Shown here: positions 1,932 through 33,993 of the stretch, one piece after another
Numbering within the stretch: position 1 is the stretch's first letter
Layout of the letters: each line of letters opens with the position of its first letter
Source of the DNA: a virus
Taxonomy: Duplodnaviria; Caudoviricetes
DNA length: 63,884 nt
IMG/VR virus record: IMGVR_UViG_3300036985_002667
Coordinates: 1-63,884 of that record
Reading direction: 5' to 3' (one strand)
Made by a program: the position numbers and the translations under genes
Notes under the pieces: model-generated
Databases searched by the model: none
Seen by the model: the letters and a program-made list of their open reading frames with translations, nothing else
Told to the model about the DNA's origin: nothing

Positions 1932-1940
1932 GGACTGCTC

Positions 1941-19974: not shown

Positions 19975-19980
19975 GGTCGG

Positions 19981-19995
19981 GTCTAATCGTTAGAC
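19981..19995. promoter_or_regulatory. TCTAA-N3-TTAGA palindrome (copy 1 of 11)
   Basis: GTCTAATCGTTAGAC, 6 nt upstream of polA ATG and 2 nt before the tRNA. Confidence 0.7.
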
Positions 19996-19997
19996 TT

Positions 19998-20074
19998 GCT
20001 GGCGTAGCTCAGTTGGTAGTAGCACCGCTCTTGTAAAGCGGATGTCGAGGGTTCGATTCCTTCCGCCAGCACCA
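19998..20074 (+). tRNA. tRNA-Thr(TGT)
   Basis: GCTGGCG/CGCCAGC acceptor, CCGCT-CTTGTAA-AGCGG anticodon arm, GTTCGATTC T loop, ACCA end. Confidence 0.93.
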
Positions 20075-20136
20075 GCTTTTTGTTTTTCTTTCGGGCCAAG
20101 TCGCGCTCGCGTCTGCGCAGTAACTTAGTCTCTTCT

Positions 20137-20481
20137 TCACTCAGCGTCCGGGTCAGTAATTGGCCGGTCAAAATCTCGCCAATTTGATCGAGCGGTGTTT
20201 TGTTCGAGTCCATCCAGCACCTCTAAGTTCTTCTCATTGATGATGAACGCCAGTCCGCCCGCTGCCTCGATCTTCTCAAGGTTGCGTAGCTGCAACTGTG
20301 TGGGCTTACCACGTCCGGCCTTGCACTCAATGCCGATGAACTTGCCCTGATAGCAGGCCAGAATATCGGGAGTCCCGCTGTTTGCATAGAGACCCCCGAT
20401 GTAGTTCACCGCGTAGGCTCCGATTGCTTTGAGCCTAGCGTGAACACGTGCCTTCACAGCGGCTTCAGGCGTTGCGGCCAT
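20137..20481 (-). CDS. VRR-NUC nuclease (Holliday junction resolvase-like)
   Basis: TPEAAVK...GTPDI...FIGIECKA...PT.LQ....I...GG. Confidence 0.9.
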   Translation of the reverse strand: MAATPEAAVKARVHARLKAIGAYAVNYIGGLYANSGTPDILACYQGKFIGIECKAGRGKPTQLQLRNLEKIEAAGGLAFIINEKNLEVLDGLEQNTARSNWRDFDRPITDPDAE

Positions 20482-20845
20482 GTTCCAATTCGATCAGCTT
20501 GTCGAGGTAATGCCGGGCTTTCTCAAGGTCTTGCACGCCGCCCTTGTCCCGGAAGCGCATGATGTACTTCAGCGCGTTGCCATCGAAGAACCCCATCTCA
20601 TTGTTCTCGATCACTTCCCACGGCTGGATGGCCAGCTTGGTGTAATGATTGCCGCCCACTTGGTGCGTGTCGACAGCAGGCAGGGCGGGCTCGGCAACAA
20701 CTTCTACAGGGGCAGACTCCGCTCGCATCTTACTGCGTACTGCGTAGACCGTCACTTTGGATACGCCCAGCTTATCGGCTATCTCCGCCACTGTCAGGTT
20801 GATGTTGCGGGTCAGAAGGGCTCGAATCTTGTCGCTCTTTGTCAT
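20465..20845 (-). CDS. HTH plus DUF3310 (T7 gp1.7-like) protein
   Basis: N-terminal LTVAEIADKLGVS HTH; QVGGNHY...GNALKY..R..K.G..DLEKA.HY. Confidence 0.85.
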   Translation of the reverse strand: MTKSDKIRALLTRNINLTVAEIADKLGVSKVTVYAVRSKMRAESAPVEVVAEPALPAVDTHQVGGNHYTKLAIQPWEVIENNEMGFFDGNALKYIMRFRDKGGVQDLEKARHYLDKLIELEHGRNA

Positions 20846-20950
20846 GCTTGGTTCCTGCTAAAAAATTAAATTCTGAAAGAAGCTTGTGGACCTTGGCCTC
20901 AAACAAATCCATACCGGCCTGCGCAAACGCTGTGTCTTGCCATTTGTCAG

Positions 20951-21151
20951 TCATATCGATCCCATGAACTTTGGTAGGGGTGCCCAGTGTGTCCAGTACG
21001 TATCCTTGCGATTGTAGATGCCATACGTAGCACAACCCATCTTCTTATTGACGAGCTGCACCTTACGCCCCACCGGGCACGTATCGATTGGTCGCCAAGG
21101 ATACTCCTGATCCACTGCCGCAGCACCGTCCGATGAAGTCTTGACGGTCAT
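20951..21151 (-). CDS. Hypothetical protein (WRPIDTCP...THWAPLP family)
   Basis: ATGA-coupled; common phage motif. Confidence 0.65.
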   Translation of the reverse strand: MTVKTSSDGAAAVDQEYPWRPIDTCPVGRKVQLVNKKMGCATYGIYNRKDTYWTHWAPLPKFMGSI

Positions 21152-21432
21152 TCCTCACCCCTCCACGGATAGAGTGGCACCCATCCGGTCTTGTCGTTGA
21201 AACAGGCGATGTTTCTTGCCAGCATGCCGCTCTTAACGCACTGCCATGCCGTAGGTTCCGTTTCCTCATAGGTCAGCGGCTTACCCACACGCTCGGACAT
21301 TGTCTGCGTAATCGCATCCTTGAGTGCGGTGATCTCAACGTTCAAGTCCACTCGAACTGCGCCTTCGTGGATTACTTCTCCGTTCAAAAACTCCAGCGCA
21401 TCAAGCGCCAGTCTCATGGCTTCAATAGTCAT
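21148..21432 (-). CDS. Hypothetical protein
   Basis: ATGA-coupled with SD. Confidence 0.6.
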   Translation of the reverse strand: MTIEAMRLALDALEFLNGEVIHEGAVRVDLNVEITALKDAITQTMSERVGKPLTYEETEPTAWQCVKSGMLARNIACFNDKTGWVPLYPWRGEE

Positions 21433-22031
21433 CCCTCACCCCCAATGCCATGCGCTCGCTCGATTGCGCGAACAAATGTCACTTCGTTTGATGAAGCATC
21501 TCCCCAGCCAACTGCGTCGTTCCATAGCTTGTTGATCGTTTCAATAGAAAGCGGCTCCTGTTTCTTTATGAAGCCCGCACGCGAAAGCGTATCCCCGACC
21601 GTCATCAGCATTGGCCCGCGTGTCGTGTCCGTGTCGATGGGGTACTCGTTCCAGGCCCATGACTTAACTGTTAAGTTATCCTTAATAGTTGGCTTCATCT
21701 CCTGCTGCACGTCAGTCAGCGGCTTGTGCTGTGGCAGGGTGGTGTAGAGGGGCAGATAATCTGGATGCTTATGAAAATCAATATGCCCACGATCAACCCG
21801 CACCCACGCCACCGGCTCAACTGGTGTGTATTCGTTATCCACACTAGTGTGTGTTTTTTCCATCTCCTGTTGCACATCCGTCAGCCGTTGCATGGCTTCC
21901 TCGGCAAGCGCGGCGCGGAGGGCGGTGACGGTCTTGTTCAGGTTGCTTGCTGGCACCAACCAGAACGAAGAATTCTTGTTTGTGTCAACGATGAAGTCCA
22001 TTGCCAACTGTGCTGCTTCTCTTAGGTTCAT
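21429..22031 (-). CDS. Hypothetical mosaic protein
   Basis: ATGA-coupled; internal LTDVQQEM duplication. Confidence 0.6.
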   Translation of the reverse strand: MNLREAAQLAMDFIVDTNKNSSFWLVPASNLNKTVTALRAALAEEAMQRLTDVQQEMEKTHTSVDNEYTPVEPVAWVRVDRGHIDFHKHPDYLPLYTTLPQHKPLTDVQQEMKPTIKDNLTVKSWAWNEYPIDTDTTRGPMLMTVGDTLSRAGFIKKQEPLSIETINKLWNDAVGWGDASSNEVTFVRAIERAHGIGGEG

Positions 22032-22339
22032 TCCTCACCTCTTGCTCTGATAGCGGCAGCGCAGGCTCTGACGCCGTTGTTATACGGCTTGTCCGTGTGC
22101 TCCAACTTGGAAAGTTGAGTTTCACACACCTTCGCACACGCCTCACGTTCGGCAGCAACAAGTTCCACAAGTGCTTTGATGTGCGTGTTAACCTGCTCAA
22201 TCACTGGCGCGTTTGCCGCAAAGATGCGCTCACGTTCTGCCGCAGAAACAAGAGCGGCGAAGCGTTCAAGCATAACGTCCTGCTCAAAGTCATCAAACCC
22301 AACTTCTCGCGCCATGCGGATAATATCTTCGCGGTTCAT
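22028..22339 (-). CDS. Hypothetical protein (AEREACAKVC family)
   Basis: ATGA-coupled; common phage motif. Confidence 0.65.
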   Translation of the reverse strand: MNREDIIRMAREVGFDDFEQDVMLERFAALVSAAERERIFAANAPVIEQVNTHIKALVELVAAEREACAKVCETQLSKLEHTDKPYNNGVRACAAAIRARGEE

Positions 22340-22680
22340 TCCTTATCCCTCCCAATCTCAGCCGCAGCCCTGACGATTGCGCGGCGGGTGGCGGCGTAGG
22401 GGTCGTCGCCATGAGGTTCTGTGCCGATGCACTGTCCTGTGCTGCCCACAACGTAAGTGCGGCAATCTTCATCGTCCACTTGGACGGTGAGCCACAACTT
22501 CACAACCAGTCGCAGCGCGTCGCCGTCATCGGTGAGCGGGTTCCAGCCGCTTGTAGAGGCCTTAATGATTCCGGGCTCCGGAGGGTGTTTGTAAGTGCCC
22601 TTCGGCTCTCCGCTTAAGTTAAGCGACGGTACTACTCCCGCAGCCTTCGCAGCCAGTTCCAGCAATTCGTGGTCAGTCAT
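22336..22680 (-). CDS. Hypothetical protein (WNPL.DDGDALRL family)
   Basis: Common phage motif; ATGA coupling. Confidence 0.7.
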   Translation of the reverse strand: MTDHELLELAAKAAGVVPSLNLSGEPKGTYKHPPEPGIIKASTSGWNPLTDDGDALRLVVKLWLTVQVDDEDCRTYVVGSTGQCIGTEPHGDDPYAATRRAIVRAAAEIGRDKE

Positions 22681-22781
22681 TTCTTATCCCCCATCCCCAC
22701 CTGAGCGATCACCCAGCCAAGGAGCCAGCCGACAAGTGCGCCTCCGACCATTACCAGCAACTCAAAATAGTCGCTCATCAT
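22677..22781 (-). CDS. 34-aa membrane peptide
   Basis: Read by hand: MMSDYFELLVMVGGALVGWLLGWVIAQVGMGDKK; coupled on both sides. Confidence 0.45.
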   Translation of the reverse strand: MMSDYFELLVMVGGALVGWLLGWVIAQVGMGDKK

Positions 22782-22948
22782 TCCGCGATCTCCACATCAG
22801 CCCAAGCTGCCAGATGCACAACATTGCCATTGTCGTCAGTACAGTAGCTGTACATGCCGTCCACATGATGGAACAGCAGAGTGGTTTCGTTTCCTTGGTC
22901 ATCGCTTAGTTTCACCTTAGTGTTTCTGGGAACGTCGTAGAGTTTCAT
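22778..22948 (-). CDS. 56-aa hypothetical protein
   Basis: Read by hand: MKLYDVPRN...FHHVDGMYSYC...WADVEIAE; ATGA coupling. Confidence 0.6.
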   Translation of the reverse strand: MKLYDVPRNTKVKLSDDQGNETTLLFHHVDGMYSYCTDDNGNVVHLAAWADVEIAE

Positions 22949-23301
22949 TTCTGTTGCCCCATGTAGTACGCGAGGCAGGAATTAAATGCGAGGTGGTCAT
23001 ACGCCCGGGTGCCGTCAATAGACCACGCATGGGTGTTAACCGATTTGGGGGTGTCCGCGATTTGAATCGTGCCGAATGCTTTGTTGCAGTCGCTCACCGT
23101 CACGGTCCAACGCCATGAATACGGAGCCGAATTCACATCCCACAGAGCTACGACTTTGGGCACGTCTTTAGTGCCGATATTGCGGACGGACGTGGGGAGG
23201 AACACGTAGGAGGCATCTGTAATAGAAAACGAATACGGGTTCGCCTCCTGTGCCAATGCCAAAGTGGGGACAAACAACAGTGCGGTAAGTAGCTTCTTCA
23301 T
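22945..23301 (-). CDS. Secreted/periplasmic protein
   Basis: Signal peptide MKKLLTALLFVPTLALA; two Cys. Confidence 0.65.
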   Translation of the reverse strand: MKKLLTALLFVPTLALAQEANPYSFSITDASYVFLPTSVRNIGTKDVPKVVALWDVNSAPYSWRWTVTVSDCNKAFGTIQIADTPKSVNTHAWSIDGTRAYDHLAFNSCLAYYMGQQK

Positions 23302-23696
23302 TTAACTTTGCTCCCGAGCCAGATCATCGCTGCGCCGAGGACGCCGGCACCGGCTGCTACGGCCAGACCTAACGGCCCGAGGGCTACGATAGACAGCAAG
23401 CCGCCGACTACGCCAACGCTTGAGATGATCGCGCCTGCTCCCAGCAGAACCCGTTTAAACACGCTTGGTTTGGCGGCCTGCGCCGGGGCGGGTGTTGGTG
23501 CGGGCGCTATGGTGGGACGGCTGGGCGGTACGCGATTGACTTGGCTCATAGCGCGGGCCATCTGCGCGGCTTTGATCGTGGGCACGAGCGGGCTGTCCGT
23601 GTTGCGTAGCTCGGTGCGGTCGGGGCGTGGTGCTGCCCGTGCTGGGCTGGTCACTGAGGCTTCGGTTTGCGCTGGCGAAATGCGTTCGATCTTCAT
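23298..23696 (-). CDS. Membrane protein with disordered N-terminus and C-terminal hydrophobic hairpin
   Basis: AAGGA SD before ATG 23696 (MKIERISP...); two hydrophobic segments. Confidence 0.6.
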   Translation of the reverse strand: MKIERISPAQTEASVTSPARAAPRPDRTELRNTDSPLVPTIKAAQMARAMSQVNRVPPSRPTIAPAPTPAPAQAAKPSVFKRVLLGAGAIISSVGVVGGLLSIVALGPLGLAVAAGAGVLGAAMIWLGSKVK

Positions 23697-24105
23697 GGTC
23701 TTTTCCTTGGTTGATAAGTCGTTCGTGTTTAATAAAATACATTGCTGAAACAAAAGCACAGATACCGGTGATAACGAGGGCGCCGGGGCCGAACGCCGGG
23801 ATCAGCAACAGGCTGCCTATCGCACACCACGCCATCGCTCTCCCTGCTGCTTTCGCCGGAGTCTCCGGGGTTACATACGGGGGTCTCGGGGGAGGCTTTT
23901 CTGGCTTCTGCTCCACCTGCACCTTCTTGGCACGAGGGGCGGCAGTCTTGAGGGCTGACTCCAGCCTGCTCGCGTGCAGCGTCGAGCGTGTCGCATTGAT
24001 CGGATCAGACGAAGTGAAGGTCTTCACCTGCGGTACAGGGTCAAACCGTACCCGACGCTGAGCTGTGGGCTGATACTGCCGAGGCGATACGCGGTCGACG
24101 TTCAT
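23455..24105 (-). CDS. Membrane protein with disordered N-terminus and hydrophobic hairpin
   Basis: MNVDRVSP...; TM hairpin; long overlap with next gene. Confidence 0.5.
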   Translation of the reverse strand: MNVDRVSPRQYQPTAQRRVRFDPVPQVKTFTSSDPINATRSTLHASRLESALKTAAPRAKKVQVEQKPEKPPPRPPYVTPETPAKAAGRAMAWCAIGSLLLIPAFGPGALVITGICAFVSAMYFIKHERLINQGKDHEDRTHFASANRSLSDQPSTGSTTPRPHRATQHGQPARAHDQSRADGPRYEPSQSRTAQPSHHSARTNTRPGAGRQTKRV

Positions 24106-24239
24106 GAGAAAAGTCTAACCAGTAGACCCACACCCACTACAGCCAGCGCGCCGAGGATACCACCCATAATCACGCCACTGCCGTAGCCCTCGGTGTAGCC
24201 TTCCTCAAACACGGTGGTGAATTCGTCTTCTGTAATCAC
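24102..24239 (-). CDS. 45-aa membrane peptide
   Basis: GTG start overlapping upstream stop; single TM; ATGA coupling downstream. Confidence 0.5.
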   Translation of the reverse strand: MITEDEFTTVFEEGYTEGYGSGVIMGGILGALAVVGVGLLVRLFS

Positions 24240-24706
24240 TGCTGTTTCCTTAAGTTAGTGGCGCGTCCTGATGTAATTTCTTTTTGGGCTAGCTTGATGG
24301 CTGTGTCCATCTCACGTACGGTTACTATCTCCATCTGCGCATCGTGCAGTTCCAGCAATTGGTTGAGTATCGTGATCTCCGGGCCAGTGGGCACGTACTT
24401 CCCCACCTTATGGCTGCGGTGAACAATATCCATCAATGTCTGACGCCCTGCTGTGACTTCGTCCGCATACTCTTTACCGAAACCCATCTTGTGCAGGGCT
24501 TCGGTAATGTTGTACATGGTGATGAGCATGCTCATGTGAGACGGCCCCGCCTCGCCTTGCAACAGGGCAAGCATCGCGGCGTGGTTCTTGAGCCGCAACG
24601 TTACCAGTTGATCGGCGTGGTCAGTCATTGGGGCAAACCCATCTTTCACATAGCCCATCGGGTTCAGAATCACACCCTTGGGCCGGTACTTACTTCTCTT
24701 GCGCAT
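24236..24706 (-). CDS. Hypothetical protein
   Basis: 156 aa, in operon. Confidence 0.65.
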   Translation of the reverse strand: MRKRSKYRPKGVILNPMGYVKDGFAPMTDHADQLVTLRLKNHAAMLALLQGEAGPSHMSMLITMYNITEALHKMGFGKEYADEVTAGRQTLMDIVHRSHKVGKYVPTGPEITILNQLLELHDAQMEIVTVREMDTAIKLAQKEITSGRATNLRKQQ

Positions 24707-24863
24707 CGGCTCTCACCAAGGCAAGTGCTTCTTTGACCAACTCACGTACTTGCTTGGCGTCTTCTCGACCTTCTGCGGTCTGTAAGTGCGCGCCTGAGTG
24801 AATCGCAATGCCTAACAAACTATCTGCTGCGTGTAATGCCGCACTAATTAGTTCCTTGTTCAT
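24690..24863 (-). CDS. Hypothetical protein
   Basis: GGGAG SD before ATG 24863. Confidence 0.5.
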   Translation of the reverse strand: MNKELISAALHAADSLLGIAIHSGAHLQTAEGREDAKQVRELVKEALALVRADAQEK

Positions 24864-24985
24864 CTGTTTTCTCCCTTGTAAGACGCGCTTTGACTTTGGC
24901 GGTGCAGGTTGCGCATCGCCAGCGTTTGCCACTAGATGTTTTGAGCCACCCACCCCCAGCAGCAGGGCGGGTCTTCATGCAGTTG

Positions 24986-25252
24986 CTACAGAAGTGTGTG
25001 TCTGTCATGGAAAATATCAATGTCCACTAAGTTGAAGTTCTCGTCGACCGAGAACCACAGAACTCTATCAGGTGGAGGCTCAACAACTTTAAGAAAATGC
25101 TCACCCGCCCGGGCCATGTCGGCAATGGCGACCAGCCACGCCGGGCGCTGGGACAAGGGCAGGTCGATGTGCGAGTCCGTGTCGAGTTCGGTGCTGAACA
25201 CAGACAAGTAGTAGCGTTCCTTGTGCTCGGTGTAGCGCATCTCAACAGTCAT
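24986..25252 (-). CDS. Hypothetical protein
   Basis: ATGA-coupled. Confidence 0.55.
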   Translation of the reverse strand: MTVEMRYTEHKERYYLSVFSTELDTDSHIDLPLSQRPAWLVAIADMARAGEHFLKVVEPPPDRVLWFSVDENFNLVDIDIFHDRHTLL

Positions 25253-25488
25253 GACTTCTCGTCCTCGAGCTTAGTCACCAGCTGCATCGCGCCGTACTCG
25301 TGCAGCGTCATCATGGTGCCTTTCAAAGACTCAGACGTAACGTAGGGTCGGAGCAGCTTGAGGTACTTGGAGTTGCCTACGTACTTGTCCTCGATACGCT
25401 CGGCACCGTCGAGTGCTTCGGATAATTTTTTTAGTTGCGGTTGGGTCAACAGCACTTTGGTATTGGCAATCTCAAGCAGGAACTTCAT
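25249..25488 (-). CDS. Hypothetical protein
   Basis: AAGGAG SD before ATG 25488. Confidence 0.55.
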   Translation of the reverse strand: MKFLLEIANTKVLLTQPQLKKLSEALDGAERIEDKYVGNSKYLKLLRPYVTSESLKGTMMTLHEYGAMQLVTKLEDEKS

Positions 25489-26071
25489 CGTCGTCTCCTT
25501 CGTAGTCAAAAGTAATTTCGTTTGCTTCGCACATCTCAAGAAAGTGTTCTTCGGATGTTTCGTACTCGTAGGTCTTTTGCAACCGCGTGGCTAGCTCATG
25601 GCCTTGGTCTGTGACCCAGTCCTCGATCAGTGAGTAGATGCCCGACTGCTCTAGCTGCTCCTGCAACATGTCCTCCCAGTCTTGCGGGTCCATGTCAGAG
25701 AACACACCCTCCGGCACGGTGTAGGCGATGTTGTCGTTCCAGTCGAGCGAGAAGCCACTGCGGCGATTGTTGTTAGACACCCGTACATAGCTGCCGTCTT
25801 GGGCAAAGGCTACGTACATCGGATACCACTTCTCGTCCAGCTTCTGAGCCTGCATCCACGGGGCAATCTTAATGCGCCCGTTAAAGCCCGCCGTCCAGCC
25901 GTAGTGATCTTCGAAATAGATAGAGTCGACGTGCACCCCCATAGGGGAAACCTGCTCGGTGAAGTCGGACTCGATGAAGTCCCACCACTCGTGGTCTGGG
26001 TAGTGGTTGCACAACTCCTGCTCGTAACGCTTGGGGTCTTTCTCTTTGAGCTGCAAGGCTGTGAGCTGCAT
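25472..26071 (-). CDS. Acidic hypothetical protein
   Basis: 199 aa, D/E/W-rich, GGAG SD. Confidence 0.65.
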   Translation of the reverse strand: MQLTALQLKEKDPKRYEQELCNHYPDHEWWDFIESDFTEQVSPMGVHVDSIYFEDHYGWTAGFNGRIKIAPWMQAQKLDEKWYPMYVAFAQDGSYVRVSNNNRRSGFSLDWNDNIAYTVPEGVFSDMDPQDWEDMLQEQLEQSGIYSLIEDWVTDQGHELATRLQKTYEYETSEEHFLEMCEANEITFDYEGDDDEVPA

Positions 26072-26072
26072 G

Positions 26073-27257: not shown

Positions 27258-27285
27258 GGTTGTTCCTTAGTGGTTAGTGGTGTGG

Positions 27286-27696
27286 CTAGTCTCGGTACAG
27301 GTACGTATGCCCTTCGATCTCGATCTCGTCGTAGTCAGATCGGCAGTTGTCGGCAGTCGCTTTCCAATCGATCTCGATGTACCACGGTAAGGGTTTGGGC
27401 ACGTCGCCGCAGTTTTCTAGTGTGTCCTTGATGTAGTCGACGAAGTGGTCGTCGGCAATAAGGTAGTCGGCACTACCAATCTCCTCCAGCGCGTCGGTCA
27501 GCATTAGCCACTCGACCCCCTCGGGCTGGTGTTTCTCCCATACCTCGACAGTCTGCTCGCGCAGGTTGTCGTAGTCGTCGTGGTCCTCGTCGATGCCAGC
27601 AGACTCGCACATCTCATCAAGGAACTGCTCGCGCTCTGCGTCTAGCTCCTCGATCCTGTCTTCAATCACTTGCCTGCTGATAAAGTCACCGTGCAT
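27286..27696 (-). CDS. ArdA-like acidic antirestriction protein
   Basis: Highly acidic; C-terminal YIEIDWKATAD...G.TYLYR pattern. Confidence 0.55.
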   Translation of the reverse strand: MHGDFISRQVIEDRIEELDAEREQFLDEMCESAGIDEDHDDYDNLREQTVEVWEKHQPEGVEWLMLTDALEEIGSADYLIADDHFVDYIKDTLENCGDVPKPLPWYIEIDWKATADNCRSDYDEIEIEGHTYLYRD

Positions 27697-27859
27697 GGCG
27701 TGCCTCCTTAAGTAGTGCCGTCTGTAGTCGTGTCAGGTCGCGCTGGTGGTCGTACATCTGAGGGCGTGGGGCGTAGGATCGGCTGATCCGTGTCGGGTTC
27801 CAGTCCTTGTGTAATCGCACGATAGTGCGTCCGTTTGATGTGGTCTCAAGTCGTAGCAT
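27686..27859 (-). CDS. 57-aa hypothetical protein
   Basis: Read by hand; AAGGAG SD; MLRLETTSNG... Confidence 0.5.
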   Translation of the reverse strand: MLRLETTSNGRTIVRLHKDWNPTRISRSYAPRPQMYDHQRDLTRLQTALLKEARHAR

Positions 27860-27879
27860 GGTGATCTCCTTGGTAGTGG

Positions 27880-27894
27880 GTCTAACGGTTAGAA
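27880..27894. promoter_or_regulatory. TCTAA-N3-TTAGA palindrome
   Basis: GTCTAACGGTTAGAA containing the TAA of 27889-28173. Confidence 0.7.
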
Positions 27895-28173
27895 TGGCAC
27901 GTCTACCTCGTCGCCTATCTTGCTGGCGACGTATGCACGCATGGCTGCAACGAGTGGGGTGGGGCCTTCGCTATAGCGGGGTGGATAGTCTTCGGTTCGC
28001 GCATACCAGTGCGCCGAGGGGGTGGCCGTAATGCAGAGCCTCTCACGCTCAATGATCGGCCCTCCATGCTCCCATTTGCCGCAGTAGTTGACCGGGGACA
28101 GCACGCCCGTCAGTCTCTCTGCATGGTTCACTGCCCAATTAAGGGCGTCGCCTGTCAGTTCACTTGTTTTCAT
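27889..28173 (-). CDS. DUF2591/NinX-like protein
   Basis: ELTG.ALNWAV...W..GGPIIERE...GPTPLVAAMR.YVASK.G. Confidence 0.8.
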   Translation of the reverse strand: MKTSELTGDALNWAVNHAERLTGVLSPVNYCGKWEHGGPIIERERLCITATPSAHWYARTEDYPPRYSEGPTPLVAAMRAYVASKIGDEVDVPF

Positions 28174-28448
28174 TTCACATACTCCTCTAGGGTTTGGATT
28201 AACTTCTTGCGTTGCTCGGGGTGGTGCCTTGGGTCAGACAGGTGGGCCAGAGTCAGCCGTATCATCTTCTTCACCGTCTCCTCCCGCTCGGCGTTCAGCT
28301 TGAGTAGCTTCTCGATGTTGTCGGTCAGCTGGGGCACAAGAGTGGCAGCGCGCTCCATCTCGGCCACGTGGTAGTCGGGCCACTGACTCTCGGGATACTC
28401 GCCCTTGATAGTGTTAGCGGCGAACGTCAGTAGGTCATGCAGCTTCAT
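28170..28448 (-). CDS. Hypothetical protein
   Basis: ATGA-coupled with SD. Confidence 0.55.
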   Translation of the reverse strand: MKLHDLLTFAANTIKGEYPESQWPDYHVAEMERAATLVPQLTDNIEKLLKLNAEREETVKKMIRLTLAHLSDPRHHPEQRKKLIQTLEEYVK

Positions 28449-28780
28449 TTCCCCTCCTTGTCCCAGTTCTGGTCCGCTTTGCGTATTGCTTCATTGGCCA
28501 TACCCATGATCGCGTCGAGCCGCTCGCCGTCGTGATAGTCGTAGACATACGCAGGAGTGGACACGATCTTCTTGAGTGCAGCCAGCAGGTCGGGTGCAGC
28601 GGCCACAAGCTGTGCATCAGCACGCCCTCGGGCTTCGGTTTCTGGGGTGTATACGCCGTGTGCGTTGCACGAAACTACAGCGGCAACGCATAGCCCGCCC
28701 TTAACGGGGCCTACATATACATGCCGTGGGTCATTGTCGTGGTTCCAAACTTCCCACGGCCCGGGTGTGTGTTGTGTCAT
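28445..28780 (-). CDS. Hypothetical protein (HTPGPW...AAAPDLL family)
   Basis: Common phage motif; GAGGAG SD. Confidence 0.75.
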   Translation of the reverse strand: MTQHTPGPWEVWNHDNDPRHVYVGPVKGGLCVAAVVSCNAHGVYTPETEARGRADAQLVAAAPDLLAALKKIVSTPAYVYDYHDGERLDAIMGMANEAIRKADQNWDKEGK

Positions 28781-28804
28781 AGTGGTCTCCTCGGTAACGG
28801 GTGG

Positions 28805-28819
28805 GTCTAACCGTTAGAA
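28805..28819. promoter_or_regulatory. TCTAA-N3-TTAGA palindrome
   Basis: GTCTAACCGTTAGAA containing the AAA gene stop. Confidence 0.7.
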
Positions 28820-29887
28820 GTATTTGCCCATGTCGCTGGCTGCGCGCCGGAACAGTGCGTCGGCACAGGCCATCGGTGCCTTGTCACGGTTACCTGCCAC
28901 GGTGGTGATGTACAGCGCCCGGGCCTCGAACGACTCCCAGCGGTTGACGTACGTCATGACAGGGGCGATTGTCGTGCGGGTCGTGTCCATCGCCAGCCGG
29001 AAGGCCAAGATAAAGTAACTGGCCGTGTCCGGGGGCAGTGGGGCAGTCTCAGGATGGGTAGTGATAGTCTCGGTGGGCGGCAGCTTGTCAGACAGGCGCA
29101 GCAGTGCGTCCATGTCGCGGGCAGCAGACTCACCCACGGTGCCGATCAGGGCAGGTAGTGTAGCCTCGCCTAGCGTGTGGCGATGGCTGACGATGTGTGA
29201 GGCGTGAGCAAGAGACCGAGGGCTACAGAAGGCCCGGGTCTGGTTGTTGAGTGGGTTGAATATGTACGGGTTCTTGGTCGTGGGATCGTCGGCATAACAC
29301 TCGAACACTTGGGAGTATTCTTGAGCGAAGGCCAGCACCTCTGCTGCGATGGCGTTGTGAGAGGCTGTGGCCCAGTTGATCCACTCATCTGCCGTGGGGT
29401 TGGCAACAGGCAACACAGTCATGCGGTTGTAAGCATGGGCCGGGATGTTATCTCCCACGCCGTCAGTGTCGAGGTTAGTCGTGGCAAAGACTATAGAGCC
29501 CGGGGGCAGCGGGTGGTCACCGAGGCGTCGTTCGAGGATGACCGGCAACAACATGTTGAGCACAGGGCGGGACGCCTTGCCCAGCTCGTCGAGCATGATA
29601 AGCACGGGACGTGGCTGGTGTGCACCGAACCGCACATTGGGTGCATAGGTCGTGGTGGGTATGGCGGAGGGTGAGGAGGGTGAGGGTCGGTCGATGATAG
29701 GCAGCCCGAGGTCGCCTAGGTCTAGGTTGGCACAGTCGATGTAGCAGGGGTGGTAGTCAGGCATGTGACGTGCAATAGTCGTGAGGATGCTCGACTTGCC
29801 AATGCCCGGGGCACCGCGCAGCAGAAACGTATTAGTGTGTCCGCATGTTTGCACGAGGGTGGCAGCTTGCTGGAGAGTGACTTTCAT
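28814..29887 (-). CDS. MoxR-like AAA+ ATPase
   Basis: GAPGIGKS, LDE, ATTN, NR, SPRS. Confidence 0.88.
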   Translation of the reverse strand: MKVTLQQAATLVQTCGHTNTFLLRGAPGIGKSSILTTIARHMPDYHPCYIDCANLDLGDLGLPIIDRPSPSSPSAIPTTTYAPNVRFGAHQPRPVLIMLDELGKASRPVLNMLLPVILERRLGDHPLPPGSIVFATTNLDTDGVGDNIPAHAYNRMTVLPVANPTADEWINWATASHNAIAAEVLAFAQEYSQVFECYADDPTTKNPYIFNPLNNQTRAFCSPRSLAHASHIVSHRHTLGEATLPALIGTVGESAARDMDALLRLSDKLPPTETITTHPETAPLPPDTASYFILAFRLAMDTTRTTIAPVMTYVNRWESFEARALYITTVAGNRDKAPMACADALFRRAASDMGKYF

Positions 29888-29912
29888 GGTGTGTCCTTAG
29901 TGGTTGGTAGTG

Positions 29913-29935
29913 GGTGGTCTAACGGTTAGACCACC
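29913..29935. promoter_or_regulatory. TCTAA-N3-TTAGA palindrome with extended 10-bp arms
   Basis: GGTGGTCTAA-CGG-TTAGACCACC. Confidence 0.75.
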
Positions 29936-29947
29936 TATTGCTAGGTG

Positions 29948-30715
29948 TTAGACCGGGATGTGCGTCGTCGTGGTCTCTATCGTGTGGTACATGGGCTCCT
30001 TGGCCTTAGTGAGGATGTGGTTGAGGGCGTCCTTGGCCGGCAGCTTGTGCTGTTGCCACGTGACGTAAAGGGTCGGATAACTGTATGACGCGGCAATGGC
30101 AGGCCACAGCTCAGGCTGTGTGGTGACGGCAAGCTCTAGCGCTCGAGAGTCGTATAGCTTGTGCTTGTAATAGAGCTGTTGCGTCTCGTTGGCAGCGGCA
30201 GCGTCCTTAGTGTCCGGCACTCCTGCGTGCAGCACAGGGAACACTGAGCGGAACTCCCGTGCCTGCTTATGGAATGGCCGGGACTGAGTGGTGTCGATAC
30301 ACCGGCGCTTGAACGGGAGAGGGCGTCGTGGGGTGCCGTGTTGGTTGAGGTGCATGCCATCGTAGAAGGCGTAGTGGCCGTGACCGGGCACGTAGAGGTG
30401 CCACTGGCTGAGCCCGAACCGCTTGCATGAATAGATACGGGTGGGCAGCTTGATAGTGGCAAGAGCTTGGTTGAGCGTGTCCTTGGTGATGTTAGTGCGC
30501 CACGAGGCGGCAGATAGCTGCACACGCCCATCGGGGTACGCTCGCAGTATTGTCGTCTTGTGGCACACAACCTCTGCGTGGGTGGGGGAGATGGCAACGC
30601 GCTGGTTGGTGCGGCGGCGGTTGTGGGCGTAGAGCGGGGCGTACCCCACGTATGCACCTCGTTTGTATTTGTATTCGTCGTAGTGGGCAGTCAGCAGGTC
30701 GTAGGCAGTGGTCAT
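29948..30715 (-). CDS. Hypothetical protein
   Basis: 255 aa, AGGAG SD. Confidence 0.65.
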   Translation of the reverse strand: MTTAYDLLTAHYDEYKYKRGAYVGYAPLYAHNRRRTNQRVAISPTHAEVVCHKTTILRAYPDGRVQLSAASWRTNITKDTLNQALATIKLPTRIYSCKRFGLSQWHLYVPGHGHYAFYDGMHLNQHGTPRRPLPFKRRCIDTTQSRPFHKQAREFRSVFPVLHAGVPDTKDAAAANETQQLYYKHKLYDSRALELAVTTQPELWPAIAASYSYPTLYVTWQQHKLPAKDALNHILTKAKEPMYHTIETTTTHIPV

Positions 30716-30730
30716 GGTGTCTCCTAGGCA

Positions 30731-30745
30731 GTCTAACGGTTAGAA
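30731..30745. promoter_or_regulatory. TCTAA-N3-TTAGA palindrome
   Basis: GTCTAACGGTTAGAA containing stop of 30740-30916. Confidence 0.7.
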
Positions 30746-30916
30746 CGTGGGGGTGTGAACGACGGGGGTACCGTCGGGGCGTGCGGCAACAACTACCGAC
30801 ACTTCGTATGCACGCTTGGCCTTGAACAGGGCAGCGGCAATGTCTCGGGCTTCGAGTGAGGTGTTAGCTTGCACCTCACGCTGTTGATTCTTATAAAAGG
30901 CAACGTATGTATACAT
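30740..30916 (-). CDS. 58-aa hypothetical protein
   Basis: Read by hand: MYTYVAFYKNQQREVQANTSLEARDIAA...; AAGGGG SD. Confidence 0.6.
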   Translation of the reverse strand: MYTYVAFYKNQQREVQANTSLEARDIAAALFKAKRAYEVSVVVAARPDGTPVVHTPTF

Positions 30917-30935
30917 GGTGTCCCCTTAGTGGTAG

Positions 30936-30950
30936 GTCTAACGATTAGAC
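30936..30950. promoter_or_regulatory. TCTAA-N3-TTAGA palindrome
   Basis: GTCTAACGATTAGAC. Confidence 0.7.
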
Positions 30951-30999
30951 CCGGCGCAAGGTGGCTGGGTCGTGGGTGAGAACTCAGTATTGAGTATAT

Positions 31000-31028
31000 A
31001 TTATACCATACATTAGTCTATTTGTCAA
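31000..31028 (-). promoter_or_regulatory. Consensus sigma70 early promoter
   Basis: TTGACA-17-TATAAT with TGn extension. Confidence 0.88.
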
Positions 31029-31030
31029 GT

Positions 31031-31399
31031 TCACCTATTGCTAGGTGGTGGGTCGGTCGGAGGCAGGGCGTTGGCAACGGCTGTGGCTCGCAGCTGGTCG
31101 ACGATCTGCTTCACACGCTGGCGGGACAGGCCGTGGACGGCACCAGCCTTCGCCATGCTCTGGCCCTCGTATGTGACGCGCTTATAAATATCTTGGTCCC
31201 GCGTGGACGTGGGCAGGGTGGCAAGGGATAGGGTTGGGAGGGTGTCGGGGCTTGAGTAGTGCTGGAGAGTGGCAACAAACTCCGCTAGAGGGTAGAGGCG
31301 GCCCGTGAGCATGACATAGCGCACGCCTTCTATATATTGTATAGGCAAGGGGAGACCGTCGAGGGTCGGCAACAGTTCGAGTTGAGGGCGAGAGGTCAT
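31031..31399 (-). CDS. HTH (sigma region 4-like) DNA-binding protein
   Basis: SMAKAGAVHGLSRQRVKQIV. Confidence 0.6.
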   Translation of the reverse strand: MTSRPQLELLPTLDGLPLPIQYIEGVRYVMLTGRLYPLAEFVATLQHYSSPDTLPTLSLATLPTSTRDQDIYKRVTYEGQSMAKAGAVHGLSRQRVKQIVDQLRATAVANALPPTDPPPSNR

Positions 31400-31415
31400 T
31401 TGAGGCTCCGGTGAG

Positions 31416-31430
31416 GTCTAACGATTAGAC
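31416..31430. promoter_or_regulatory. TCTAA-N3-TTAGA palindrome
   Basis: GTCTAACGATTAGAC upstream of SD. Confidence 0.7.
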
Positions 31431-31478
31431 CCCAAATTATAGGGGGGTATGATGGAAAAAGAGTAGTCAATAGAGAAT

Positions 31479-31507
31479 ATTATACCACAGGATAGCGGGT
31501 TTGTCAA
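31479..31507 (-). promoter_or_regulatory. Consensus sigma70 early promoter
   Basis: TTGACA-17-TATAAT with TGn extension. Confidence 0.88.
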
Positions 31508-31529
31508 GGTATATGTTTTGGAAGACATA

Positions 31530-31975
31530 CCCTCCTATTATATGTGTCGATTTGTGTATAAAAAAGGTAAAAGTATTAACACAATAGATACGAAAAAACG
31601 TTACAGTGATACAAATTAGTTGTTTTAAATCAACGGGTTAAAAATGTATAGGTTACCTAATAAGCCGAAAAAGCCTTTAGAATCAACGGGGTATCAGTGT
31701 AACGTAACTTTTTGAAAAAGAGGGGGCTCCCGGCAGACCTTTGGAGGACTTGAAAAACGGCAGCGTGTATGTAAAGGATATGAAAGCAGCCGATTAGGGG
31801 AAAAAAGAATTTCCCGGCGGCGCTCCTCAAAAACAGCGTTACAGCGTCACATATACTTATTATAAATTAATTAATCTCTCTCTCTCTCCTCTGAAAACAC
31901 TCCTTTTGCCACATATAAACCGTGTAACGTTGCCAACGTTACACGGCGGCTAAAAACGTTACAGCGTCACATCTA
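31530..31975. other. AT-rich non-coding region with CGTTACA iterons (putative replication origin)
   Basis: Six CGTTACA/TGTAACG copies, 16-bp direct repeat, 12-bp inverted repeat, (TC)n tract. Confidence 0.55.
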
Positions 31976-31978
31976 CAT

Positions 31979-32320
31979 TTACCTACCCTCAATTAGAGTT
32001 TTTCCGTCCGGCAGCCGTGTCACCCGAACCTTGCCCGCCATCAGCTTGCAGAACGCTCTGAGCCGGGTTTTGTCTGGGAATAGGGTTGCCAGAGTGTCGC
32101 CTTCTTCTGCGGTAAGCGTCAGGCTTAGCCCCGCCGTGTCCGGCAGCCTTGTCACGGTGCCTGTGCCGTCCCAATTGGATTTCCACGACATACGCTTATT
32201 ACACCCTCCTGCGTATACGTGGACGTAGGCGCGGGCTTTCTTCGCTTTGTCGCGGGGGATAGTGCAGCTCTCGCCCACTTTCAACATCTTGAACGGCCAT
32301 TCTTCTCTGAAGTTCATCAT
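31979..32320 (-). CDS. Small putative DNA-binding protein (WPF..L.VGES..IP family)
   Basis: GAGGAG SD; pattern shared with 10568-10801. Confidence 0.6.
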   Translation of the reverse strand: MMNFREEWPFKMLKVGESCTIPRDKAKKARAYVHVYAGGCNKRMSWKSNWDGTGTVTRLPDTAGLSLTLTAEEGDTLATLFPDKTRLRAFCKLMAGKVRVTRLPDGKTLIEGR

Positions 32321-32332
32321 TGCTCCTCTGTG

Positions 32333-32347
32333 GTCTAACGGTTAGAC
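32333..32347. promoter_or_regulatory. TCTAA-N3-TTAGA palindrome
   Basis: GTCTAACGGTTAGAC, perfect; just downstream of a weak TTGAGG-17-TAATAT promoter candidate. Confidence 0.7.
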
Positions 32348-32483
32348 ATACTCATATTACACCCTACTCTCGCCCGCCTCAAGCGCTCACTCGCCCGCCC
32401 CCAGCCACTATGACGCCCCCGCGCCCGCTCGCCTGCCCCTCGCTCGCTACTAACTACTATGACGTTTCGCCCGCAAGGGGCGC

Positions 32484-32507
32484 AAAAAAGCCCGCCGAAG
32501 CGGGCTT
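32484..32507 (-). terminator. Rho-independent terminator
   Basis: AAGCCCGC-TTCG-GCGGGCTT followed by a U tract on the minus strand. Confidence 0.85.
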
Positions 32508-32510
32508 GTC

Positions 32511-32594
32511 CTACCATTCAAAGAGCCATGCCAGAAACACAAAGCCCGCCATTATCGCCAGCGTGAGCCAGCCTACCTCTTGCCCGAGCGTCAT
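32511..32594 (-). CDS. 27-aa membrane peptide
   Basis: MTLGQEVGWLTLAIMAGFVFLAWLFEW; ATGA-coupled. Confidence 0.45.
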   Translation of the reverse strand: MTLGQEVGWLTLAIMAGFVFLAWLFEW

Positions 32595-32746
32595 ATCTCA
32601 AGCCTTTCCACTTCATCCTGCCACCCTAGCAGTGCATCGCACTGCGCGAGAGTATCTTTGACTACCGTATCAACCCGGCGGGCCAGCTCGGGTGGCAGGG
32701 TGCCGCTAATGCGGCATTCAAGCAACAAGGCGAGTAGTTCGAACAT
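32591..32746 (-). CDS. 51-aa hypothetical protein
   Basis: AAGGGA SD; MFELLALLLECR... Confidence 0.5.
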   Translation of the reverse strand: MFELLALLLECRISGTLPPELARRVDTVVKDTLAQCDALLGWQDEVERLEI

Positions 32747-32761
32747 GTTATTTTTCCCTTA

Positions 32762-32780
32762 GGTTCTAACGATTAGAACC
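32762..32780. promoter_or_regulatory. TCTAA-N3-TTAGA palindrome with compensatory flanks
   Basis: GGTTCTAA-CGA-TTAGAACC. Confidence 0.7.
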
Positions 32781-32808
32781 CCGCGCCTCGCGACGCGGGG
32801 TGAGCGTG

Positions 32809-33588
32809 TTACTCAGCGAAAAGGTTATTGTCCGCGAGAATTTCGCGCACCTCAGACGCGACAGAAAGCTCTCCAATGCTCTCAAGCATCGCCACCAATG
32901 CGGTGGCATGCAAAGCCACTTCGTGACGCGTCAGGGCCTTTACCGGGCCTGACTTAGGTGCCGCCTTGCGTCCGCCGGTTTTTTGGCTGATAGGTGCGGC
33001 ATCAATCGCCTTGCGCACCTCAGATTGTGCCTTCTCCGCGTCAAGCTTTGCCTGCGCAGCCGCAAGCTTTACCTCGTCGGTGGCTTTTGCCTTCGCGGCC
33101 TTGCTGGCCAGCTCTTTTGCCTCAGCGGCTTTTTCAGCCGCGAGGGTTTCCGCTGCAATAAGCTTTTCCGCGTGCTCGGATTCTTTTTTAACCTTGGCAG
33201 CATCCAACGTGTCTTTGTACAAAGACACATAAAATGGAACCCCCGTCGCGAAGGATATTTCCATGCCCTTCGCGTATGCTCGCGAAGTGGAGTATCCAAG
33301 CTTCCATGTGGTGCCGTAATCCGTGATTTTGCCCGCTATTTTCGTTGGTGGAATCCCCTTTTCGTTTTTCACAAGGGACACGGGTTTGACCACGCTTTCC
33401 ATAATATCTGCTACGGCTACCTTTGCAGATACGCCAGTCTCTCGGGCGATATCTAACAGATCGTTGATTGCCTGAGCCCGCATAACATCCGCGGATAGGA
33501 TCGCTTCAGTCAATCCCTTGCCGATGCTTTCCAACGCTTTGCGCGTTGCAAGAAGTTCGTTTTCTGGCATTGTCTTGATAATTTCCAC
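32809..33588 (-). CDS. First early gene; Lys/Ala-rich coiled-coil protein
   Basis: GAGGAG SD plus GTG; own promoter. Confidence 0.7.
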   Translation of the reverse strand: MEIIKTMPENELLATRKALESIGKGLTEAILSADVMRAQAINDLLDIARETGVSAKVAVADIMESVVKPVSLVKNEKGIPPTKIAGKITDYGTTWKLGYSTSRAYAKGMEISFATGVPFYVSLYKDTLDAAKVKKESEHAEKLIAAETLAAEKAAEAKELASKAAKAKATDEVKLAAAQAKLDAEKAQSEVRKAIDAAPISQKTGGRKAAPKSGPVKALTRHEVALHATALVAMLESIGELSVASEVREILADNNLFAE

Positions 33589-33667
33589 GGTGTAACTCCT
33601 CTTTGTAGTGCCTAGGCGCTTAGGTAAAGAGCTGCAAGGTGCGCCGTTAAACCTTACAACAGACTAC

Positions 33668-33696
33668 ATAATATCTTTTACTGAACAGACTGTCAA
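33668..33696 (-). promoter_or_regulatory. sigma70 early promoter
   Basis: TTGACA-17-TATTAT. Confidence 0.8.
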
Positions 33697-33699
33697 GGG

Positions 33700-33714
33700 C
33701 TCTAACGGTTAGAC
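33700..33714. promoter_or_regulatory. TCTAA-N3-TTAGA palindrome
   Basis: CTCTAACGGTTAGAC, 3 bp upstream of -35. Confidence 0.7.
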
Positions 33715-33825
33715 CAGCGCATCGCGCACGAACGCGCCGGGCGCGACCCCACCCATACCCCACCCCCCGCGACCCATGATGGGACTCCTCCCTTGTGCTT
33801 GTGCTGAGTTTCGGAAACTCAAAGC

Positions 33826-33947: not shown

Positions 33948-33965
33948 TTAAGCCCCCATACGCGC

Positions 33966-33993
33966 TTGCGCTTACGTGGAACCGTGCTATATT
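33966..33993 (+). promoter_or_regulatory. Possible late-arm promoter
   Basis: TTGCGC-16-TATATT with TG extension. Confidence 0.4.

Follow-up and report, generated by a model that had tools for sequence, protein, structure and literature searches.

A short palindrome at the early-gene junctions of an uncultured freshwater phage group turns over by lineage and may be a multicopy operator

RESULTS AND DISCUSSION

Eleven copies of one palindrome in the early arm

The window analyzed here, a stretch of 63,884 base pairs (bp) that makes up the whole of IMG/VR record IMGVR_UViG_3300036985_002667 (completeness estimate, 100%), is the genome of a tailed phage, and the element in question is a 13-bp palindrome, TCTAA-N3-TTAGA, 11 copies of which punctuate its early genes. 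The genome is divided into two arms of opposite orientation, the gene content of the early arm having been assigned from family matches:

34015 to 63809 and 89 to 10567, plus strand: late arm, with terminase, portal, virion and tail-fiber proteins and a polyvalent protein of 2267 amino acids (aa)
33588 down to 10782, minus strand: early/replication arm

Among the early-arm products are a MoxR-like AAA ATPase, a DUF2201/VWA protein, a family A DNA polymerase (polA), and a PD-(D/E)XK nuclease, along with an HNH protein, an SNF2 helicase, and a DUF927 primase-helicase; two early open reading frames (ORFs), 29948 to 30715 and 32809 to 33588, gave no Pfam, PHROG, NCBIfam, or PDB sequence match. No lysogeny genes were seen in the window. 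Searches with megablast and blastn returned no nucleotide match among 50,697 phage records, and the closest cultured polA matches were found in Rhizobium phages (35% identity) and Pseudomonas phage KPP25 (34%). IMG/VR contains 109 polA relatives, with identities of 45 to 91%, and the DNA sequencing runs that contain parts of the early arm are labeled as freshwater, lake, or sediment metagenomes. No RNA run was listed as covering 25400 to 33900.

A sequence-only reading of the window had reported 11 copies of the palindrome, all of them in the early arm. Both statements hold: every copy is exact (the positions given there lie one base too low), all fall between 19982 and 33713 on the minus-strand arm, and the late, plus-strand arm contains none. 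The copies are given below in order of position, together with the features that adjoin them; distances are in nucleotides (nt), and promoters P1 to P3 are matches from a scan for the sigma-70 consensus, with start points inferred from those matches.

19982 to 19994: copy 1, TCTAATCGTTAGA on the plus strand; 7 nt before the polA ATG at 19974 (minus strand) and 3 nt before the tRNA-Thr gene at 19998 (plus strand)
19998 to 20074, plus strand: tRNA-Thr (TGT), antisense to the early arm and adjoining copy 1
24114 to 24126: additional, degenerate copy with one mismatch; 8 nt before the ATG at 24105
26109 to 26121: copy 2, in the last codons of the DUF2201/VWA gene (26073 to 27257); 37 nt before the ATG at 26071
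27881 to 27893: copy 3, containing the TAA of the NinX-like gene 27889 to 28173; 21 nt before the ATG at 27859
28806 to 28818: copy 4, containing the TAA of the MoxR-like AAA gene 28814 to 29887; 25 nt before the ATG at 28780
29918 to 29930: copy 5; 30 nt before the ATG of the MoxR-like gene at 29887
30732 to 30744: copy 6, containing the TAA of the 58-aa gene 30740 to 30916; 16 nt before the ATG at 30715
30937 to 30949: copy 7, at about +44 to +56 of predicted promoter P3; 20 nt before the ATG at 30916
31000 to 31028, minus strand: P3, TTGACA-17-TATAAT with TG, 12/12 consensus matches
31417 to 31429: copy 8, at about +43 to +55 of predicted promoter P2; 17 nt before the ATG of a candidate regulator gene
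31479 to 31507, minus strand: P2, TTGACA-17-TATAAT with TG, 12/12 consensus matches
31919 to 31947, minus strand: terminator-like 13-bp hairpin after gene 31979 to 32320, at the end of the first early operon
32334 to 32346: copy 9; 13 nt before the ATG at 32320
32765 to 32777: copy 10; 18 nt before the ATG at 32746
33668 to 33696, minus strand: P1, TTGACA-17-TATTAT, predicted first early promoter
33701 to 33713: copy 11, upstream of P1, 4 nt before its -35 element and at about -52 to -40 of its predicted start

By chance, 0.04 copies would be expected (100 dinucleotide shuffles, none of which reached 11), and a control pattern read backwards produced no match. The palindrome is the genome's only dispersed repeat, and it is a real and strongly nonrandom feature. 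As had been described, the central triplet on the plus strand varies within narrow bounds, being CGG in five copies, CGA in three, TCG in two, and CCG in one. Ten of the 11 copies end 7 to 37 nt ahead of an ATG, opening ORFs of 51 to 629 aa, and the polA start behind copy 1 has no Shine-Dalgarno (SD) sequence, both of which agree with the earlier description. In an arm that is 88% coding, seven copies are entirely noncoding (noncoding share of the region, 11.8%; binomial tail, 5e-5), three reach only into the final 5 bases of the upstream gene, whose stop codon then falls within the left arm of the palindrome, and one (26109) sits in the 3' end of the DUF2201/VWA gene. A half-site, GTCTAAC, also contains the stop codon of ORF 29948 to 30715, again as reported. 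The flanks had been said to covary as well, and this did not stand up: Watson-Crick extension sums to 15 bp, versus 11.1 bp in shuffles that keep the column composition (p = 0.115), and the palindrome extends by at least 3 bp into its flanks at only 2 of 11 copies. What the flanks do show, read in the sense of the genes, is a bias in composition, with G at -1 in seven copies and C at +1 in nine.

P1, P2, and P3 are predicted, near-perfect sigma-70 promoters on the early strand. Three of the 11 copies lie within 60 bp of such a promoter, and the remaining eight have no strong promoter nearby. No copy among the 11 is followed by a T-run.

The arrangement around copy 1 is matched in relatives G001, G003, L005, and L074/L082 (for these designations, see below), and the combination of tRNA-Thr and motif recurs in G001 and G003. 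On the plus strand, an extended -10-like string, TGGTATCAT, was observed 7 nt upstream of copy 1, in the window only.

Relatives carry their own palindromes at shared junctions

For comparison, 12 related records (G001 to G012, the window itself being G000) were fetched whole or in large part, and every palindrome with 5-bp arms and a center of 0 to 5 bp was tallied; L numbers denote loci. Each of the 12 relatives turned out to have one dominant palindrome, clustered in the early arm and present in 3 to 17 copies per genome. These palindromes share a common build, with arms of 5 to 6 bp around a center of 1 to 3 bp, and differ in sequence or spacing, with TCTAACGTTAGA, TCTAATATTAGA, and TCTAAGCTTAGA among the forms encountered:

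G001, G005, and G004: the window's 13-mer, in 6, 8, and 3 copies, respectively
G002 and G003 (polA 80% and 74% identical): TCTAACGTTAGA-type palindrome in 11 and 7 copies, no 13-mer
G007: TCTAATATTAGA, 15 copies
G006 and G012: TCTAA-NN-TTAGA with a center that is mostly GC, 17 and 16 copies
G010: ATGTAAT-N-ATTACAT, 6 copies
G011: TTTTAA-NN-TTAAAA, 4 copies
G008 and G009 (50% polA clade, 44% GC): GTGTCA-N3-TGACAC within a 29-nt palindrome, GGACAAAGTGTCA-N3-TGACACTTTGTCC, whose center is variable, 6 and 8 copies

A motif scan of relatives had been proposed in the sequence-only reading, and it shows that homologous junctions often carry each lineage's own version. First, of the 11 relatives with the MoxR-like gene, 10 have the local motif at the junction upstream of it, as does the window. 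Second, the junction before polA carries the local motif in G000, G002, and G003 and, judged by position, in L005 and L074/L082; in all three close genomes that keep this junction, polA begins without an SD sequence, 5 to 10 nt past the motif. Third, the copy in the tail of the VWA gene is retained in G000 to G003, and there the tail has been recoded, reading ...TSLTIRPP... around the 13-mer and ...TSNVRSP... around the 12-mer (SLTIR versus SNVR). Similarly, the 58-aa gene at 30740 to 30916 reappears in G012 behind the motif of the G012 lineage. Equivalents of copy 11 are located upstream of the first promoter at -50 to -38 in G005, -58 to -47 in G002, and -62 to -51 in G012, and equivalents of copies 7 and 8 at +32 to +62 of strong promoters in G002, G003, G005, and G008.

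On this comparison, the copies within one genome change together. Since homologous junctions carry the local motif and the VWA tail has been recoded around it, selection acts at the level of the nucleic acid, and the combination of invariance within a genome and divergence between genomes is the signature of a specific trans-acting partner. Most 12-mers have a self-complementary center, which is CG in G002 (9 of 11 copies), TA in G007 (15 of 15), and GC in G012 (11 of 16).

Two further observations were made in these genomes. In G005 (L110), at 12624 to 12636, the center of a copy, TCTA-ATG-ATTAGA, appears to double as the initiation codon of a small, Cys-rich ORF preceded by GGAG, so that copies can overlap start codons as well as stops. 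In the 50% polA clade, a second palindrome, TTATGCTCTG-N4-CAGAGCATAA, follows the 29-nt one (record coordinates ~10125 to 10200 in G008 [L121] and ~35100 to 35190 in G009 [L125]); it is found at the first early promoter, where it overlaps a -10-like CATAAT.

A probable multicopy operator for an early-gene regulator

Our favored reading, to which we assign a probability of about 0.5, is that the palindrome is a multicopy, dyad-symmetric DNA operator for a coevolving, phage-encoded dimeric regulator of the early genes. From the directly observed sites, their placement, and their lineage-specific turnover, we infer protein binding: a phage protein, as a symmetric dimer, would read two TCTAA(Y) half-sites and would dock in three kinds of places, namely, just upstream of the first early promoter, 30 to 60 bp into the transcripts of the two very strong promoters that come next, and in the short gaps between early genes, down to polA. 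We also infer the sign of the effect, which would be negative control of the early arm, with the bound protein interfering at the first promoter and serving elsewhere as a roadblock to elongating host RNA polymerase; as the protein accumulated, the early genes would be damped or shut off. We propose that site and protein coevolve, which would explain why each lineage has its own version of the site.

Besides invariance within a genome and the existence of lineage versions, the copy upstream of P1 speaks for an operator. In G000, G005, G002, and G012, this copy lies on DNA upstream of the -35 element of the first early promoter; it would not be transcribed from that promoter, so an element acting in RNA does not fit there. 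Likewise, the self-complementary centers of the 12-mers fit a dimer on duplex DNA, which needs symmetry; a hairpin loop does not. Hairpin energies calculated with 3-nt flanks are marginal, at -0.8 to -7.9 kcal/mol, and in the TCTAA lineages the modeled stem probability is anywhere from 0 to 1, depending on the copy. The sequence-only reading had left the choice between an operator regulon and a hairpin-promoter regulon, and it is the operator half that these observations support best; the other half lacks a recognizable phage RNA polymerase.

The candidate for the binder is encoded between P2 and P3:

31031 to 31399, minus strand: candidate binder of 122 aa with a conserved N-terminal domain, a Pro/Thr-rich linker, and a C-terminal helix-turn-helix (HTH) that resembles sigma-70 region 4 and KorA

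Pfam Sigma70_r4 scored above its cutoff in two members of this protein family, and the family profile gave weak matches in PDB to sigma region 4 and KORA-domain chains (E values of 0.0026 to 0.01; ~0.009 for KORA). For one paralogue, the Pfam KORA value was 0.0029, below the cutoff. The family is present in all six TCTAA-type genomes for which the promoter-proximal region is available (G000, G002, G005, G006, G007, and G012; the G006 member is split by the record ends) and was not found in either of the GTGTCA-type genomes, G008 and G009. In each of the six genomes, the gene is situated between two consensus promoters, with a copy of the palindrome in or next to its first codons. Protein searches yielded 14 close relatives and family alignment yielded three loci, too few for a covariation test. 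The AlphaFold2 model, built from 14 aligned sequences, is poor, with a mean predicted local distance difference test score (pLDDT) of 55.6, and a two-copy complex prediction (score, 0.38; mark, 0.42) counts neither way. We regard this protein as a candidate binder only, a lead rather than a finding. Two paralogues of the 31031 family were observed in G007 (L120), at 4182 to 5027 and 5055 to 5570, one of them 281 aa long with a C-terminal extension that has no Pfam match.

Several points weigh against the operator. First, the half-site is the same and the center is either 2 or 3 bp in phages whose polA proteins are 80% identical, which is awkward for a rigid dimer. Second, the surroundings of the motif are not symmetric. 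In the sense of the genes, C follows the motif in 9/11, 8/8, 11/17, 10/15, and 12/16 copies of five genomes, G at -1 is rarer (7/11, 5/8, 4/17, 6/15, and 6/16 copies of the same genomes), and 22 of 28 copies with an N3 center have a pyrimidine in the middle; the C after the motif and the pyrimidine center hint at an orientation that a symmetric operator would not need. Third, copies at +32 to +62 and inside operons overlap no promoter, and classic repression of initiation is therefore impossible there. Fourth, the 29-nt palindrome of G008 and G009 would, in the model, always fold as RNA. Finally, the co-occurrence of the 31031 family with the TCTAA motif is confounded, because it follows phylogeny, and the other two HTH proteins considered do not appear, from comparison with their relatives, to qualify as binders and were rejected: the Cro/C1-type HTH (HTH_3) protein at 13751 to 13993 occurs in all relatives, with a recognition helix that is nearly the same across TCTAAT-, TTTTAA-, and ATGTAAT-type genomes, and the HTH domain of 20465 to 20845, tried as a general binder, is confined to the G000 to G003/L082 subclade.

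Alternative explanations

Among the alternatives, we took most seriously an element acting at the RNA level, although we consider it unlikely. The palindrome would then be a hairpin or sequence tag in leader or intercistronic mRNA, bound by a phage protein and controlling translation start, processing, or stability, in the manner of the early RNase III sites of T7 or of RegA-type translational repression. The proximity of 10 of 11 copies to a start codon suits this, as do the copies in the P2 and P3 leaders and the SD-less polA so close behind the motif in the close genomes. Across 13 genomes, 64 of 118 copies end between -15 and +50 nt of a called gene start, versus 14% of random positions, when starts are called greedily; with a permissive start caller, the figures are 68% of copies and 42% of the random background, and much of this proximity reflects an intergenic location within an arm of 88% coding DNA. 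The C-rich downstream flank, oriented with transcription, would also fit, and the pyrimidine bias of the central base and the one-base shift in half-site spacing between close relatives likewise favor an RNA element or another oriented function. In G008 and G009, moreover, the 29-nt hairpin has a modeled stem probability of 1.0 in eight of eight copies, with a variable loop. However, the copy upstream of the first promoter would be untranscribed in four lineages, the 12-mer forms allow a 4-bp stem at best, and stem probabilities scatter from 0 to 1 among copies with no covariation of the flanks. A purely structural hairpin, in addition, need not be identical in every copy.

A loading or pause site for an elongation or antitermination factor is, in our view, very unlikely. 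Comparable to RfaH at ops or to lambda nut, such a site would be read on the nontemplate strand or in nascent RNA and would be reiterated along an operon of ~20 kilobases (kb). Copies at +32 to +62 of the strongest promoters (G000, G002, G003, G005, and G008), followed by copies at junctions down to polA, are placed suitably; a self-complementary element of 12 to 13 nt might suit the exposed strand of a transcription bubble, and the early mRNA, C-rich and G-poor by GC skew, might be prone to Rho. On the other hand, our searches found no NusG/RfaH-like or Q-like protein (and no ParB N-domain), the copy upstream of P1 is left unexplained, and elements of the RfaH/ops or nut kind are not known to be palindromes.

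The hairpin-promoter idea, in the form of an N4-type promoter that gives each tagged gene its own start by an unrecognized phage RNA polymerase, is highly improbable. N4-type polymerase reads a DNA hairpin with a 5-bp stem (5 to 7 bp) and a 3-nt loop, and the 5-3-5 geometry of the 13-mer lineages fits, as does the very short, SD-less distance to some starts (7 nt for polA); the opposite-strand tRNA-Thr, too, starts 3 nt past copy 1 without a clear promoter of its own. Nevertheless, the 12-mer lineages G002, G003, G006, G007, and G012 cannot form a 5-3-5 hairpin, and consensus sigma-70 promoters already serve the early arm. Residues 98 to 443 of the 2267-aa protein do align with an N-terminal, noncatalytic section of the PHROG "virion RNA polymerase," but the match covers profile positions 193 to 557 of 3406, outside the polymerase domain, and in this protein no polymerase domain was detected and no PDB sequence match was obtained. 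Pfam RNA_pol gave no match, a weak result given that the control was silent as well, and no ORF of G000, G002, or G007 contains a DxDGD-type motif. In these searches, neither a single-subunit (T7-type) nor a two-barrel RNA polymerase signature turned up. The 2267-aa polyvalent protein (3764 to 10567) has a HELGH metallopeptidase motif near residue 1219 and an LPD38 domain at 1962 to 2137.

The sequence-only reading had also raised the possibility that the palindromes are minimal recombination sites, akin to the attC sites of integrons, that define one-gene cassettes. As a main function, this is unsupported: there is no tyrosine recombinase and no attC architecture, the motif differs by lineage, and breakpoints fall mostly elsewhere. 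The absence of a visible integrase, which that reading had itself noted, was confirmed, since PF00589 found no match at an E value of ≤0.1 in the complete 63,884-bp record (the control was positive in 14 of 14 genomes). The letters GTCTAAC and GTTAGAC do fit the R'' and R' cores RYYYAAC and GTTRRRY, and some upstream stop codons do overlap the left arm, but the match is only formal: it exists only where G precedes (7/11) and C follows (9/11) and where positions 6 and 8 are C and G, and a degenerate pattern of 7 letters carries little weight. attC sites consist of two inverted core pairs, R''-L''...L'-R', around a variable region, about 57 to 141 bp in total, with extrahelical bases. The element described here is 13 bp in total, with its two "cores" one base apart, and it lacks L'' and L' boxes, a variable central region, and extrahelical bases, as well as IntI, attI, or a Pc array. 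In architecture and for want of the enzyme, the comparison with attC fails.

That recombination, whether at attC-like cassette borders or at shuffling junctions like the PeSL of T4-type phages, is the primary function is barely credible. In T4-type phages, PeSL cassettes are described as regulatory sequences repeated at early-gene borders of a hyperplastic region, where recombination between copies adds or removes single genes (PMC2839356); PeSL combines a sigma-70 promoter with a terminator stem-loop, and the repeat described here is neither. To look for breakpoints, contigs from four DNA runs of two studies were compared with positions 19000 to 34200. Two one-gene indels are bounded by copies. 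In one variant, 71 letters replace 30704 to 30994, which includes the 58-aa gene between copies 6 and 7 (two runs, one study); in another, ~35 nt that we interpret as aligning to a motif copy replace 27872 to 28176, which includes the NinX-like gene by copy 3. Of the homology-block ends at gene junctions in G000, 15 of 27 also coincide with a junction that bears the motif, as 30% of its junctions do, but the excess is weak or absent elsewhere (5/19 versus 0.19 in G002, 5/11 versus 0.24 in G012, and 0/2 in G009), and it is confounded, because the conserved genes are those preceded by copies. Whether gene changes in relatives break at the motif had been put forward as a test, and most breakpoints in the population contigs lie away from copies: among the joints listed, beyond which there were 18 more, 1 of 15 ends within 30 nt of a copy, and at least 8 lie in the motif-free stretch from 21.4 to 24.9 kb. 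Since the same genes stand behind different motifs in different lineages, exchange across lineages cannot use a shared site, and a site kept inside a coding tail follows no cassette logic. Copy-to-copy recombination probably happens, as with any dispersed repeat; it is not the reason for the existence of the copies.

Gene replacements and indels are numerous in the motif-free stretch itself (21400 to 24950), where joints fall at 21478/22122, 22156/22676, 23334/23647, and 24865/24944. In two runs, the contig depth between 22042 and 23055 is very high, which suggests a segment common to other abundant elements.

Lastly, we think a binding site for a host protein less likely, given that half-site spacing is not constant among phages whose polA is 80% identical.

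Comparison with known repeats and operators

Repeats of a similar kind have been reported in actinophages. Microbacterium phages of cluster EG have an 18-bp inverted repeat, GATCAACC-NN-GGTTGATC, in 8 to 10 invariant copies, which occupy short intergenic gaps among the leftward nonstructural genes at one genome end, typically 14 to 22 bp upstream of starts (PMC7302621). These repeats are kept despite diverging surroundings, and no annotated repressor or integrase and no function are reported (PMC7302621). As described there, the cluster EG repeats resemble ours in being invariant, short, inverted, and intergenic, upstream of nonstructural genes in one arm, and differ in sequence, host phylum, phage lineage, and arm length (8 bp in EG; 5 to 6 bp here). 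What we find beyond the EG description is that motif sequence and spacing change between related lineages at positions that are kept.

In Cluster O mycobacteriophages, a 17-bp repeat, TGTTCGG-NNN-CCGAACA, occurs in more than 30 copies, densest among the leftward nonstructural genes (PMC4351075). Its authors predict a dimeric DNA-binding protein, place most copies off promoters, and describe the phages as not obviously temperate; they set the repeats apart from two other types, the asymmetric Cluster A stoperators and the start-associated sequences found in Cluster K (PMC4351075). Reportedly, about a third of the copies are intragenic, the repeats are genome-wide and not tied to starts, and few if any lie at indel borders (PMC4351075). 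Invariant arms, a variable 3-bp center, and many copies are thus common to both systems; unlike the Cluster O repeats as described there, all copies in our window are in one arm, 10 of 11 are at junctions, and two indels are bounded by the motif. No kinship in sequence or phage background to Cluster O or EG was encountered, there being no nucleotide match in the 50,697 phage records and the closest cultured polA (35%) belonging to a Rhizobium phage; the resemblance would be an analogy of kind, not descent.

Operators of comparable size are found in other systems. The KorB site, OB, is a 13-bp palindrome. KorA of RP4, an HTH dimer of 101 aa, is described as a global repressor with a 12-bp symmetric operator, OA, at seven promoters (PMC2665229), which demonstrates that palindromes so short can be real dimer operators. 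Like OA, our motif is a short, symmetric, multicopy site on a mobile element, and the candidate HTH protein weakly matches KORA-domain chains, short of every curated threshold. Unlike the KorA sites, which are described as overlapping promoters, only 3 of 11 copies are near recognizable ones, and no ParB-family partner was found here. A different precedent is provided by the stoperators of Cluster A phages, which are many 13-bp asymmetric sites, oriented with transcription, intergenic within operons, and bound by the repressor, which is thought to stop elongating polymerase there; those phages are temperate, with a known immunity repressor. Unlike stoperators, the core described here is a perfect palindrome, with an orientation bias only in the +1 C and the central base.

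Occurrence of the core elsewhere and neighboring features

A scan of genome contigs (596 gigabases) for the 15-mer returned mostly single matches; with ~550 estimated to arise by chance, single matches are uninformative about the host or prophages. Many copies of the same core, GTGTCTAAC(C/G)GTTAGACAC or CTGTCTAAC(C/G)GTTAGACAG, were seen on contigs binned with filamentous cyanobacteria: L136, L173, L188, and L200 (one of 37.7 kb); L145, L162, L195, and L203 (one of 25 kb); and L165. There, the cores top longer hairpins with variable, compensating stems, several of which have T-runs and look terminator-like, and the neighboring genes resemble those of plasmids (DUF3854, a type ISP restriction enzyme), with no protein in common with the window. 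The shared core may be a coincidence or an independent use of the same palindrome.

Within the early arm, the MoxR-like AAA ATPase and the DUF2201/VWA-metallopeptidase-like protein (26073 to 29887) are kept across the whole phage group, and within the stretch upstream of polA, the only other protein of equally wide conservation is an Hjc-like nuclease (20137 to 20481). A fast-evolving protein of ~255 aa (29948 to 30715 in the window) usually precedes the MoxR-like gene. Among the late genes, a long tandem array of 6-nt units, CCCACA/CCCACG, was noted at 62236 to 62500 within a 1475-aa ORF (59382 to 63809) without a family match, as was a homing-endonuclease-like ORF at 42191 to 43180 (PHROG 314; GIY-YIG-type PHROG 5123).

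Implications

For annotation, our results carry a warning: attC-like core letters in a 13-bp palindrome are no sign of an integron. Since similar actinophage repeats are already in print, what is new here, on the genomes compared, is the lineage-specific turnover of the motif at fixed positions, and it provides a natural case of an operator-like site that shifts its half-site spacing by 1 bp between close relatives. This phage group, with its abundance in lake metagenomes, at least six motif classes, and alignable genomes, may make the function of multicopy dyad repeats tractable. Several junctions have clear positional homology across the group and offer material for finding the binder by covariation, and Escherichia coli should read the consensus sigma-70 promoters.

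We speculate, at rather long odds, that the palindrome and a fast-evolving binder together constitute a private "address label," such that newly acquired genes need the resident label for correct expression or control. If so, recombination between labels would add or remove single genes, and genes would be exchanged within a community of phages that share a label; a change of label (from TCTAAC|GTTAGA to TCTAAC-S-GTTAGA, for instance) would split that community. The palindromes would then amount to a regulatory compatibility system that structures the mosaic evolution of a widespread group of freshwater phages.

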